From: Escherichia phage ES17
Sequence record: NC_070984.1
Length of the DNA: 64,000 bases
Strand: one strand, 5' to 3'
Shown here: in pieces, positions 33,350 through 38,968 of the stretch
Position numbering within the stretch: the stretch's first letter is position 1
Layout of the letters: every line of letters begins with the position of its first letter
The notes under the pieces: generated by a model
Databases searched by the model: none
Told to the model about the DNA's origin: nothing
Seen by the model: the letters and a program-made list of their open reading frames with translations, nothing else
Position numbers and translations under genes: made by a program

Positions 33350-33373
33350 ACGAAAAAGCCACCCGAAGGTGGC
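33350..33373 (-). terminator. Rho-independent terminator (reverse strand)
   Basis: On - strand GCCACC-TTCG-GGTGGC followed by TTTTTCG; located after SSB-like gene. Confidence 0.65.
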
Positions 33374-33395
33374 TAAGCTATAACAAGGAGAGTTA

Positions 33396-34142
33396 TCAGA
33401 AAGGCGAATCGTTATCATCTTCATAAGTAGAAGCAGGCTCTTTATCAATCGTAGGAATTGAAGGAGTAGCTTCTTTCTGTTCTGTTTCAGAAGCACGAGT
33501 AATTTCACGACCAGCCAGAGGCATGTTCTTAGCGTCATTAGCTTGAGTAAGCAGATTGCGCTGGAACGGGAACATCAGTTGATAAGATGCTACGTTCTCG
33601 TCGGTTTCAGCATACGGTTCGAAGAATACCAGAGGACTACGAGCTTCACCAACTGCTGCACGATATTTAGTTGGGATTGGAGAAATGGTCTTGATGGAGT
33701 TTTTAACTTCACCAGCTTTGTTAGTGTAAGAGTTAACCAGAATGTTAACAGGCTGACCTAACAGAACATCCTTGAACCAAGACAGATCACCTTTCAGTGC
33801 TTGAATACTTGGGTCAACCATCTTGCAAAGATCAAGAATACCAGAGTTCTTAGCTCGTGGGTTTACATCATAGCTCTTGAACTGGCAAGCCGGACGTGGT
33901 TCTAATGCCTTACCATCGGAATCTTTACCAGTAGCATCAACACCAATCAGCTCGAAAGCTAAATCCATACGGAAAGCCGGATTCTTAGGAGTTACTGCTT
34001 TGGTCTTCGGGTCAATCCAAGGGTCACGATTGTGAACACCCAAACCTACTACACGAACGATACGTGCTTCGTATTCACCATCAGGGATTACATCGTAGTT
34101 GGATTTACGGGAAGAAGTTGCGATAGTTGGAATCATAGACAT
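33396..34142 (-). CDS. Single-stranded DNA-binding protein (T7 gp2.5-like, putative)
   Basis: 248 aa ending in acidic tail ...TYEDDNDSPF (SSB-type C-terminus with terminal Phe); strong SD AAGGAAA; TAATGTATA promoter motif directly upstream. Confidence 0.5.
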   Translation of the reverse strand: MSMIPTIATSSRKSNYDVIPDGEYEARIVRVVGLGVHNRDPWIDPKTKAVTPKNPAFRMDLAFELIGVDATGKDSDGKALEPRPACQFKSYDVNPRAKNSGILDLCKMVDPSIQALKGDLSWFKDVLLGQPVNILVNSYTNKAGEVKNSIKTISPIPTKYRAAVGEARSPLVFFEPYAETDENVASYQLMFPFQRNLLTQANDAKNMPLAGREITRASETEQKEATPSIPTIDKEPASTYEDDNDSPF

Positions 34143-34195
34143 AGTGTAATTTCCTTATTTAATTTGAAAGATTGTTGCTCTCTTTGAGCGGTTAT

Positions 34196-34214
34196 GTATA
34201 ATATACATTACATA
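34196..34214 (-). promoter_or_regulatory. Phage promoter-like motif (reverse strand) upstream of SSB-like gene
   Basis: Reverse complement of 34202..34210 is TAATGTATA; about 60 nt upstream of start codon at 34142. Confidence 0.5.
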
Positions 34215-34389
34215 TATAGTGTAGGAACTACCGGAAGGTAGTAGGTTTTGTCCAAACAAAAGTCTCTTTAGAATTATTTGTTGGAGATTGTCTCTTATAA
34301 ACCCGAGACTGCCTAGCAGTTACATAAGCTCTAGCTTTTTCTGTAGCTGCATACTTATGGTTAAATTTCATGGTAGTATATCTCTAAGT

Positions 34390-34405
34390 GCTATAATGTA
34401 TATAA
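34390..34405 (+). promoter_or_regulatory. Orphan promoter-like motif CTATAATGTATATAAG on + strand inside a - strand intergenic region
   Basis: TAATGTATA at 34394..34402; no + strand ORF downstream; possible non-coding/antisense transcript. Confidence 0.35.
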
Positions 34406-34704
34406 GTTATAGCTGATAAAGTTATTGCACGGGACTGACGACGATAAGGCGCAGACGACAATCTCTCATAAGTTTGTAAGAAATTGAGAGACTACCGGAA
34501 GGGCAGGAGCCACCTGCGAGATAAAAATAGAGAATTAAGGAATCCTTGATTTAGGTTGTAGGGACTCCTAGGGACTTTGATTCTCTATTTAAAAGAATAT
34601 TAATTACTTATTACCTAAATAATTAACTAACTTACTTAAACCAAATTCAATAAGAATAGATAAAAAGATTATTCCTAAGAAAGCTAAAAAGTAAAGGATA
34701 TAAG

Positions 34705-34869
34705 TTACCATTCAAGTAAACCTTTAAAGTTAGATTTTTCTACTATCCTCTGATAACGAAGATTAGAATCAGCTTGTTTCTTTAACATCTCATTATATTG
34801 ATCTCTGATAGAGTCTTTATGTACTACAGGTTCTTTAAATAACGAGATCTTGTTCTTTTCTTCTTTCAT
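34705..34869 (-). CDS. Hypothetical protein (54 aa)
   Basis: Internal start (MKEEKNK...) with SD AGGAAGG; ORF-track longer form overlaps upstream gene. Confidence 0.3.
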   Translation of the reverse strand: MKEEKNKISLFKEPVVHKDSIRDQYNEMLKKQADSNLRYQRIVEKSNFKGLLEW

Positions 34870-35951: not shown

Positions 35952-36340
35952 CGAATCACCAAAGGCTCTTCAGAGTACACAGGAGCGGCTATTTCTACAG
36001 GAGGTGCTGCCCTAAGGTCATTAAGTCTTACGCCCTTCAGCATACCGTCTAGGTGGTCCTTTTTGGGGATTCCAACAGGGAAGTCATCAATCCAGATATC
36101 GACGAAGAAGCCTAACTGTCGACACACCTCATCCTTCTGCACACCATTACAAAAGATGACAGGGATTTGCAGGGTCTCTGCATCATAGAGGATATCCACG
36201 TTATCATAACCATTAGGCTCTGAGAAACGGAAAGTCACGAATCTTACATCATGTCCATACCCTTTCATCAATCCTATCACATCTCTCCACAGTCGTCTGT
36301 CTGCTGTGTAAGTGTCATCATAATCTAAACCAATATTCAT
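35948..36340 (-). CDS. HAD-like phosphatase/nucleotidase (putative)
   Basis: First ATG at 36340 (ORF-track TTG start lies inside terminator hairpin); N-terminal MNIGLDYDDT fits HAD motif I DxDxT; weak call. Confidence 0.3.
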   Translation of the reverse strand: MNIGLDYDDTYTADRRLWRDVIGLMKGYGHDVRFVTFRFSEPNGYDNVDILYDAETLQIPVIFCNGVQKDEVCRQLGFFVDIWIDDFPVGIPKKDHLDGMLKGVRLNDLRAAPPVEIAAPVYSEEPLVIR

Positions 36341-36356
36341 GTCAAACCCTTTAGAC

Positions 36357-37123: not shown

Positions 37124-38968
37124 TTAGTGCGTATGCATCCAGTTAAGTCCAATCTGACAATCAGAGGCCAGAGGACATTCCATATTCAAATACTCACCAG
37201 CCTTCTTAACACAAAGCTCGGTGTGCTCTTTGAGTTTCTGTACATCGTTACGATTAACTGAGAACTGGCCCTCGTCGTGCATATCAATTACCTTAGCACA
37301 ACGAACTCCATCCTTCTCAATCCACTTGTTAAGGAACATCATAGCGTATTTCATAACAACAGCACCAGCACATTGCAGGAGAGTGTTAAGTGCTTTATGA
37401 ACCATAACTTTACCAGTGGCATCTCGTCTCATTGTAATCTTACGACCATCAACACCAATCAAGTATCCTTGAGCAGCTTTCTCTGTCATACGATCAATGA
37501 GGATTGCAATACATGGGTTCTCTGCCAAGAAACGTGCTCGCATCACTGAACCTTCGTCAGCCCCACCACCTACAATTGAGCCAAGCTTAGCGTCGCCAGC
37601 ACCGTAGTTGAATGCATAGATAAACGTTTTAGCATTGTCACGAGTAGGAAGACCAGCAAGTTTCTGGTTGTGGGAGTGGATATCACCTTCAAGGAGAATA
37701 TCACGATACATAATAGCAGAAGCTAAACCACGTTCTGCCAGAGCTTTCTTAGCTGGGTTGTTCTCTTCAATTGCCTCAGCAAGCATATCCCTACACTCTT
37801 TAATGAGGTAGTGAGCGAGCATACGAAGTTCAAGTCCAGAACCATCATACCCTAAGAATACTTCTTTACCAGCGGGTATGTAATATTTGTAAGCACCTAT
37901 AGGTTTATCTTTCTTCCCCGGCTTACCTTTCTCGTAAATTACGTTAGTACCTTTTCGTATATAACAACCATCAGGAACAACGTTAGTAATAACGAAAGGA
38001 CGAGAGTGATCACTGTCTGAGTTATAGTCAGACTCAAACAAACTGCGACACTCGTGACCAAACAGACCACGGGAGGGAATATTAACCACGATACGATGTT
38101 TGAATCGAAAAGTCGGCGTAGCGCAGCTGTTAGCTTCTGCCGAAAGTTTACCATCTTCGCGTTCCTTTGCTATGAGTCCACTGATAAGACCTAGCCTGTG
38201 AGCCGCTACAACGCGTCTCTTAAGCAAACTTCCGACACTCCCTAGCTCACCCCCTAACCCTTCTTCAAGAGTCTCCTCGAGGTTTGTAGGAGCTGTAGGC
38301 CACTTGTTTGATGTGGCTAGTGCTTTCTTAATCTCATCAAACGTTACAGGATTACGGCGATTAGGGTTCAACCCCAAACCAAATACGTAAGCCTTCATGT
38401 AATTCTTAGTCTTAAACCTGAAATGCTTTTCTAAGAACTTCTTAATATCAGCGTCAACCATCTCGGCTGTCTGCTTCTGCTTAGCATTGCCTCGCATCCA
38501 AGCAGTATACCATGCTTGGTACGTTCCATACTTTCTCATATCTTTCTTGATTTCGAAAGTATTCCAAGGCTTCTTAGATACGTTAAACTCTGGAGGAAGA
38601 AAGCCTTCATCCATAAGAGCTTCTTTAACTCGTGCATCTTTCGATGGGTCAAAGTCTACGTATTCGACACAGGTGAAAGCTCCACCAATATCTTCTCTCT
38701 TCAGCCCAACCCTATCACAATAGGCTTGAGGCCACTTCTGCAAAGCTCCAGACTTCTTAAACGGCTTCATATAAGTAGAGCCATCTAATCTCATCTTAGG
38801 TAAGAGAGGAATCAACTCTCTGTCAATATTAACAATAATCTCTTTAAGGAGGTGAACATACCACCGAGCATTTCTTCGGTTGAAACTCACTCCGTGCTTT
38901 GCTTGCTTAGAGATTATATCAGCGACAGTCATCTCTGTCAAAAATGGAAGAGCGTCCGGGTTGCTCAC
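37124..38968 (-). CDS. DNA polymerase, family A, polymerase domain only
   Basis: Motif A YDGSGLELRMLAHY, motif B KTFIYAFNYGAGDAKLG, motif C VIDMHDEGQF; no DxE exonuclease motifs in the N-terminal region; GTG start with SD AAGGAG. Confidence 0.85.
   Translation of the reverse strand: MSNPDALPFLTEMTVADIISKQAKHGVSFNRRNARWYVHLLKEIIVNIDRELIPLLPKMRLDGSTYMKPFKKSGALQKWPQAYCDRVGLKREDIGGAFTCVEYVDFDPSKDARVKEALMDEGFLPPEFNVSKKPWNTFEIKKDMRKYGTYQAWYTAWMRGNAKQKQTAEMVDADIKKFLEKHFRFKTKNYMKAYVFGLGLNPNRRNPVTFDEIKKALATSNKWPTAPTNLEETLEEGLGGELGSVGSLLKRRVVAAHRLGLISGLIAKEREDGKLSAEANSCATPTFRFKHRIVVNIPSRGLFGHECRSLFESDYNSDSDHSRPFVITNVVPDGCYIRKGTNVIYEKGKPGKKDKPIGAYKYYIPAGKEVFLGYDGSGLELRMLAHYLIKECRDMLAEAIEENNPAKKALAERGLASAIMYRDILLEGDIHSHNQKLAGLPTRDNAKTFIYAFNYGAGDAKLGSIVGGGADEGSVMRARFLAENPCIAILIDRMTEKAAQGYLIGVDGRKITMRRDATGKVMVHKALNTLLQCAGAVVMKYAMMFLNKWIEKDGVRCAKVIDMHDEGQFSVNRNDVQKLKEHTELCVKKAGEYLNMECPLASDCQIGLNWMHTH

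Follow-up and report, generated by a model that had tools for sequence, protein, structure and literature searches.

The DNA analysed here, called the window throughout, is the 64,000-nucleotide stretch of Escherichia phage ES17 (NC_070984.1), and the element in question lies in its 558-bp gap at 34143-34700, which annotated relatives identify as the junction of genes 40 and 41. The best reading of the + strand of this gap, judged from its sequence, is that it carries a true promoter of gp36 (the phiEco32 sigma factor), the seventh of its kind, of the middle class and back to back with the known promoter P40. On balance, the evidence tips towards this promoter being functional and making a discrete non-coding RNA. 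A sequence-only reading had already proposed a candidate non-coding RNA from an orphan + strand promoter, a proposal that is supported and sharpened by the anatomy of the promoter, its conservation and the covariation of the first hairpin of the predicted transcript (H1). The window itself is of Kuravirus (phiEco32-like) identity: the region matches 97 phage records, nearly all from Escherichia phages that belong to subfamily Gordonclarkvirinae, meaning Kuravirus and its relatives, and its identity to myPSH2311 and myPSH1131 is 99.8-99.9%.

The promoter is recognized first by the motif TAATGTATA, which occurs four times as an exact copy in the window (9273 (+), 24475 (+), 34202-34210 (-) and 34394-34402 (+)) against 0.62 expected, a count reached in 0 of 100 shuffles. 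This motif is the single consensus element of gp36 promoters, with a -10-like tAATGTAtA (PMC8948821), and six such promoters have been published, namely the late P6, P13 and P26 and the middle P40, P58 and P68 (PMC8948821, PMC4331800). A 2025 cryo-electron microscopy structure of RNA polymerase with gp36 and gp79 on P68 places base contacts at -12T and -11G and contacts of the gp36 C-terminal domain at -37G and -34A, and mutations at contacted positions abolish transcription (PMC12276001). The + strand site matches P68 at all of these contacts, with GGTA (-37 to -34) standing 19 nt before AATGTA (-14 to -9), exactly the P68 arrangement. For instance, P68 in the window reads GGTAGTAGATAT-N10-AAATGTATA and the + strand site GGTAGTATATCT-N10-TAATGTATA, with equal spacing, and in SU10-type genomes the 12-mer upstream in the + strand site, GGTAGTAGATAT, matches the P68 one exactly and stands at an equal distance. 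The arrangement GGTA-N19-AATGTA is found three times in the window against 0.36 expected, at P40, the + strand site and P68. Across 38 promoter loci, drawn from phage records, IMG/VR and metagenomes and covering Kuravirus, Suseptimavirus and Nieuwekanaalvirus, GGTAGT and TAATGTATA are invariant in 38/38, and the 14-nt spacer occurs in 17 versions.

The upstream element also suggests when the promoter would be used. The late promoters P13 and P26 (9248-9281 and 24450-24483 (+)) carry AAGACCTA at -37 to -30, whereas the middle promoter P68 (45845-45873 (-)) and the + strand site (34372-34400) have GGTAGT at -37 to -32. Since GGTAGT and not AAGACCTA stands upstream of it, the + strand site is placed in the middle class, and this upstream difference between the gp36 promoter classes could underlie middle versus late timing. 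No exact copy of TAATGTATA corresponds to P58; SU10 has acttaTAATGTATActcc between CDS56 and CDS57, and P58 may be missing or altered in the shorter, myPSH2311-type genome of the window. The + strand site departs from the published gp36 promoters in lacking a same-orientation gene downstream: as the sequence-only reading had stated, no + strand open reading frame (ORF) of at least 30 aa follows 34394. No feature is annotated on the + strand of the gap in the relatives' records examined, and published promoter lists give the - strand promoter only; Table S2 for SU10, for example, has the same - strand sequence for the gene 40-41 gap and nothing on the opposite strand. In the full texts searched for phiEco32 and Kuraviruses, neither a seventh promoter nor an RNA at this site was mentioned, a scope that does not include the 2012 primary paper. 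The promoter and RNA element was not found in 7-11, ECO319P1, L019, L044, L045, L047 or L048, where the gap measures 103-145 nt.

The second line of evidence is the hairpin at the start of the predicted transcript. With AATGTA at -14 to -9, the predicted +1 is A34409, the base at which H1 begins. H1 occurs in nine distinct versions; at least five re-codings of its stem have left the pairing intact (AUAGCU/AGUUAU, AUAGCU/AGCUAU, AUAGUU/AACUAU, AGAGUU/AACUCU, AUAGA/UCUAU, ACAUC/GAUGU and AUCUCU/AGAGGU). The cells of the H1 alignment are paired in 98.1% of cases, against 31-52% for slid controls, both sides have changed in four of the six pairs, and the covariation score was reached by 0 of 500 shuffles. 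Comparison of structure across related phages, a check that the sequence-only reading had named, thus bears out H1; compensatory changes are seen there and at one pair of a second hairpin, H3, only. The commonest H1 variants contain G.U or U.G pairs; read from the - strand these become A.C mismatches, so the wobble pairs fit the + strand only. RNAalifold likewise keeps H1 on the + strand only, with energies of -39.0 and -49.0 for the + strand versus -30.0 and -40.5 for the - strand. The verified P68 transcript, too, begins with a hairpin.

Beyond H1 the candidate RNA is a mosaic of exchanged and nearly fixed parts. A conserved UUGCA is followed by one of three unrelated modules (A, B or C), exchanged independently of the flanks; the module segment of the window is 30% identical to that of type-A genomes, and the flanks are 95-100% identical. 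The 3' domain that follows contains, across relatives, ACCG(G)AAGG, H3 (GCAGG-AGNCA-CCUGC) and a long hairpin, H4, with inverted arms AAATAGAGAAT/ATTCTCTATTT. This domain is 90-96% identical to that of relatives in which gene 40 DNA is 79-81% identical and the right flank has been replaced, and at about 95% conservation it is still nearly unchanged where gp40 is 70% identical, making it an island of conservation. H3 shows one compensatory A-U to U-A change, in L051; in H4, seven core pairs never vary and the outer A-U pairs erode. The + strand has no coding capacity here: a small peptide was considered and rejected, because one module type does not share its short TTG-started frames with another and a 1-nt indel disrupts them. 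Searches for tRNA and tmRNA genes found none, and Rfam gave no match at gathering score in the window and only chance-level matches in 34100-34750 (E >=0.5; searched to E 10). A role as a CsrA sponge was also set aside, the GGA motifs (counted by eye) being too few at 4-6 in 160-190 nt. H4 contains TAGGGACT twice in direct orientation at a distance of 10 nt (34557-34576). In the Suseptimavirus/Paul-type lineage both copies are shorter by one G, leaving two AGGACT at a distance of 9 nt, a concerted loss that fits no secondary structure tried.

Table 1 Features at the gene 40-41 junction of the window, with coordinates in window positions.
Feature	Position	Strand	Details
Gene 40 homologue, 248 aa, OB-fold SSB-like	33396..34142	-	99% identity to phi32_40
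Middle promoter P40	34195..34232	-	GGTA 34232..34229 (-37..-34) and TAATGTATA 34210..34202
Hairpin ACTACC-GGAA-GGTAGT, first copy of the 12-mer	34227..34242		Overlaps the stop codon of the 47-aa gene
Accessory 47-aa gene, basic protein	34228..34371	-	Synonymous-only substitutions; annotated coding sequence in EcM-vB1
Putative gp36-type (P68-class) promoter, unannotated	34372..34402	+	GGTAGT 34372-34377 (-37..-32) and TAATGTATA 34394-34402 (-15..-7)
Hairpin H1, AUAGCU-GAUAA-AGUUAU	34409..34425	+	Begins exactly at the predicted +1
Variable module, type B here	34430..34490	+	Hairpin UCUCUCA..UGAGAGA; types A/C in other genomes
Ultra-conserved 3' domain, ~100 nt	34491..34590	+	ACCGGAAGG, H3 34503-34517, H4 34525-34590
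H4 on the - strand, probable intrinsic terminator of the operon ending in gene 41	34518..34590	-	13 nt past the gene 41 stop
Gene 41 homologue (phi32_41), 35-aa hydrophobic membrane protein	34604..34711	-	phrog_24970, E=6e-26

The same DNA is also read from the other side. Gene 41 is annotated in phiEco32, SU10 and MN05, and 11 variants keep its ORF unbroken and differ by conservative changes. On the - strand, H4 presents an 11-bp inverted repeat followed by UUUUUAU, and this T-run, seen as an A-run at 34523-34527 on the + strand, is invariant in all aligned relatives; H4 is thus the probable terminator of the operon that runs leftward and has gene 41 as its last gene. It differs from the compact, G+C-rich stem of a typical terminator in that two of its 11 basal pairs are G-C and its loop is long, and for these reasons, an AU-rich stem and a long loop, a simple terminator scan did not flag it. 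Upstream on the - strand lie a perfect sigma-70 promoter at 38913-38941 (TTGACA-17-TATAAT with an upstream TG) and a second one, matching at 11/12 positions, at 36317-36345. Both of these sigma-70 promoters fall within the "middle" gene arm, upstream of the genes that end at H4. Both strands of the block are probably transcribed and structured.

Care must be taken in reading the + strand alone, as several observations weigh against a discrete RNA made from it. In the lineage whose gp40 is ~70% identical, the boxes persist as GGTAGT-N16-TAATGAATA, with the -10 box changed to AATGAA and the spacing one base shorter. No U-tract follows H4 on the + strand, where the sequence is UUUAAAAG or UUAAAAUC, and the 3' end of the candidate RNA is therefore undefined. 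Folding z-scores of -2.57 (+) and -3.54 (-) do not single out the + strand, the hairpin of module B pairs further on the - strand (13 pairs there only), and one substitution in Bas88 is a better fit to a - strand helix. Within the 3' domain there is too little variation for covariation to appear, so its structure rests on thermodynamics and conservation, and that conservation could serve the - strand terminator or a DNA-level site. A BLAST search of 34372-34600 against 5,426 E. coli genomes returned only a 21-nt chance match (E=9), and in a search of the window for targets in trans no complementarity exceeded 11-12 nt, a length expected by chance. Finally, the specific antisense mechanism described next is something we infer, and we hold it only as a tentative possibility.

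If the promoter is active, transcription would start at about A34409 from middle infection on and yield an RNA of ~180 nt, consisting of the stabilizing 5'-terminal hairpin H1, the exchangeable module, the nearly invariant 3' domain with H3, and the long hairpin H4. By position, such an RNA is fully complementary to the leftward terminator and read-through segment; should H4 be the - strand terminator of the operon, the RNA would therefore be antisense to the terminator and to whatever reads through it. This segment would link the sigma-70-driven early operon, which ends with gene 41, to the 47-aa gene and gene 40. Action in cis would be most likely, with the RNA pairing with read-through leftward transcripts or with convergent transcription interfering. 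After takeover by gp36 and gp79, expression of the SSB-like gene (SSB, single-stranded DNA-binding protein) would rely on P40 alone and early transcripts would be cut off.

An effect in trans appears to us most improbable. Here the invariant scaffold of H1, H3 and H4 would present an exchangeable cassette (A, B or C) that sets the specificity for a host or defence target, and just as improbably the RNA would serve as a modular regulatory or decoy RNA controlled by the phage sigma factor. Were this so, the exchange of modules between near-identical genomes would reflect an arms race.

Among the other explanations, the sequence-only reading had raised a replication origin. In a transcription-dependent origin, RNA from the promoter would open the AT-rich DNA to its right or prime DNA synthesis there. 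A phage-specific promoter with no downstream ORF, 19%-GC DNA at 34591-34700 after the candidate RNA and an adjoining SSB-like gene would all suit an origin, and none is known for this phage group. However, the AT-rich DNA begins at 34591, a distance of 183 nt from the start site; it encodes gene 41, and Suseptimavirus and Paul-type genomes have unrelated sequence in its place. Over the first 182 nt the guanine-cytosine (GC) content is 0.42 and the sequence is structured, unlike a T4 unwinding element, and no conserved AT-rich element lies next to the promoter. An origin would also suit the extreme nucleotide-level conservation of the 3' domain, as at a protein or DNA-level site, and the two TAGGGACT copies one helical turn apart in H4, each minus one G in one lineage; yet these are two short repeats whose spacing shifts from 10 to 9 nt, and conserved iterons were not found. 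The G.T pairs of H1 would be tolerable in a single-stranded DNA hairpin too. The neighbouring gp40 is an OB-fold SSB by its predicted structure and no initiator, its match to a "replication initiation" family reaching 24 bits against a cut-off of 75; the GC-skew profile has no step here beyond a local loss of coding bias; and in 7-11 and further related genera the element does not precede the homologue of gene 40. The proposal of an origin thus finds no specific support, and we regard it as unlikely.

About as unlikely, in our judgement, is that the promoter is real and H4 does not stop the + strand polymerase, giving a multi-kilobase transcript against genes 41-47. Early genes would then be silenced by collision and double-stranded RNA, a process with similarly poor prospects, and the conserved 5' part would merely stabilize the transcript. 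The U-tract missing after H4 on the + strand is missing in every relative, no + strand terminator-like site occurs before 38281, the genes to the right are driven by the consensus sigma-70 promoters at 36345 and 38941, and sigma-70 transcription is not fully silenced by gp79, all of which would suit such a transcript. Against this, conservation ends sharply at the end of H4, the sequence downstream is freely exchanged, the ultra-conserved 100-nt domain and the swappable module would be left unexplained, and a long transcript would oppose the phage's own middle transcription from P58 and P68.

The least probable of these explanations is that only the - strand matters, the block being a terminator and 3' untranslated region (UTR) of the leftward operon (here also the leader of the 47-aa gene) and the + strand box being inactive and kept for some other reason: the invariant T-run after H4 13 nt past the gene 41 stop, the better - strand z-score, the 13-pair module-B hairpin found on that strand alone, the need of the 47-aa gene for leftward transcription through the block or an internal promoter, and a weak sigma-70-like site at 34402..34375 all point that way, but two boxes at the exact gp36 spacing, invariant against 17 spacer versions, form a promoter footprint, which a UTR would not leave, H1 covaries despite an A.C mismatch on the - strand in its commonest variants, and most genomes keep the + strand box without having the 47-aa gene.

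Back to back with the candidate promoter stands P40. The - strand motif at 34202..34210, which had been taken to promote the SSB-like gene, is indeed this promoter, published for phiEco32 (PMC8948821 Table S3; PMC4331800), and it drives gene 40. Its predicted +1 lies at ~34195 and leaves a leader of 53 nt in which AAGGAA is the Shine-Dalgarno sequence, and gene 40 is followed by a canonical intrinsic terminator at 33374..33357. In the window genome the GGTA of the P40 -35 box is supplied by the 3' end of the 47-aa gene, within the hairpin at 34227..34242. P40 lies inside a near-perfect palindrome at 34191-34211 (GTTATGTATA-A-TATACATTAC), and the + strand directly opposite has TTATGTATA, a copy of the promoter box with one mismatch.

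The product of gene 40 had been described as SSB-like, a description that its predicted structure upholds. An AlphaFold2 model built from a multiple sequence alignment reached a predicted local distance difference test (pLDDT) score of 82, and its top fold matches in the PDB are PrgE, bacterial SSBs, RPA and PriB, all binders of single-stranded DNA; a model from the single sequence (pLDDT 36) was of no use. The C-terminus is an acidic tail, ...YEDDNDSPF, with F as the final residue. By its modelled fold, gp40 is an OB-fold SSB-like protein and not an initiator, and a role as replication initiator was rejected. The sub-threshold match mentioned above is near full-length and is to NCBIfam NF046043 ("phage replication initiation protein, NGO0469 family"), a name that traces to weak BLAST similarity in a 2007 paper, and the family may be misnamed. 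An HNH homing endonuclease gene is inserted beside gene 40, on its downstream side, in several relatives and not in the window (L001 1599-2012 and L002 1592-2005 (SU10, WFI101126); L047 and L049, beside the gene 40 homologue). These insertions, the exchanged modules and the 47-aa gene jointly mark the surroundings of gene 40 as a hotspot of mosaic exchange.

The composition of the gap follows from its contents. Its GC content is 0.33, versus 0.424 for the whole window; by part, the P40 leader has 0.27, gene 41 has 0.19 and the candidate RNA region has 0.42, which is average. The low GC content is therefore due to the P40 leader and gene 41 and not to the candidate RNA. Described at first as a 558-bp AT-rich non-coding region, the gap is AT-rich and not wholly non-coding, as it holds P40, the accessory 47-aa gene, gene 41 and the unannotated promoter on the opposite strand. 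The 47-aa ORF had been called weakly supported, which underrates it: relatives differ from it by 8-9 substitutions, all synonymous, with one extra non-synonymous change in one contig, and an 87%-identical variant has an unchanged length. The ORF is under clear purifying selection, which makes it a real accessory gene; window-type genomes have it and phiEco32 and SU10 do not. Its protein has no match in Pfam, PHROG, NCBIfam or PADLOC.

Both hairpins noted in the gap are present as described, CTACC-GGAA-GGTAG at 34228-34241 and GCAGG-AGCCA-CCTGC at 34503-34517, the latter being H3. A direct repeat had also been reported at 34228..34240 and 34490..34502; two copies do exist, as the 12-mer ACTACCGGAAGG at 34227-34238 and 34491-34502, and those coordinates were 1-2 nt off. 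Its weight as a feature was overrated. An exact repeat of at least 12 nt arises in 96 of 5000 mononucleotide shuffles (~2%), the repeat is absent from phiEco32 and SU10, and a single related copy is all that type-A genomes contain. In the diverged relative L039 the stem of the first hairpin is kept with a different loop and the identity of the 12-mer to the second copy is gone. The second copy coincides with the junction of module B and the 3' domain. The 12-mer was rejected both as a functional pair and as a target-site duplication, and it is treated here as a by-product. The hairpin of the first copy, followed by AGGTTTTGTC, was flagged at 34227-34252 (+) as a + strand terminator-like site within the 3' end of the 47-aa gene; its stem and T-run are kept in L039, and no + strand transcript is known to reach there.

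phiEco32 is a model for phage-encoded sigma factors, with gp36, gp79 and the P68 open-complex structure, and its six mapped promoters all stand before genes. A seventh promoter facing the wrong way, if real, would add a layer of non-coding RNA to this programme and would offer a testable candidate for the uncoupling of early and middle transcription units. Kuraviruses are common therapeutic candidates that have been little studied at the molecular level. For annotation, the 47-aa gene and gene 41 are to be entered as real, and the gap is no free space for engineering inserts.

Among known systems, the closest to the + strand site is the gp36/gp79-dependent middle promoter P68 (with P40 and P58). 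The site shares with it a -10-like box (T/A)AATGTATA, GGTAGT at -37 to -32, the same spacing and a transcript, here predicted, that starts with a hairpin, and the identity of GGTAGTAGATAT in SU10-type genomes extends this likeness upstream. The + strand site differs in facing away from the genes of its arm, in having no downstream ORF and in standing outside the six published promoters, and its activity is predicted.

The OOP RNA of lambda is a short, structured cis-antisense RNA of a phage, with its own promoter and convergent with the distal end of an operon expressed earlier. The candidate RNA would likewise be short, structured and non-coding, with its own promoter, and complementary to the distal end of an earlier operon. 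In contrast to OOP, it would overlap the terminator and read-through segment and not the coding 3' end, if it ends at H4; it would depend on the phage sigma factor, has no clear terminator of its own and contains an exchangeable module, and no sequence or Rfam relationship between the two was found. Phage origins offer another comparison. The primary origin of T7 consists of phage promoters and an AT-rich stretch, and oriF and oriG of T4 of a middle promoter and an unwinding element. The gene 40-41 junction resembles these in having a phage-specific promoter without a coding role near AT-rich DNA and replication genes, but 180 nt of structured, conserved DNA of average GC content separate the promoter from the AT-rich DNA, which is itself coding and not conserved. 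H4 recalls a bidirectional terminator, lying as it does between an A-run and a T-run and between convergent transcription units, although its stem is AU-rich, its apical part is a structured 44 nt and a good U-tract is found on the - strand only. The known kind to which the candidate belongs is the phage antisense or non-coding RNA under a phage-specific promoter, and what is unusual here is that it contains a swappable module next to a 3' domain of very strong conservation.

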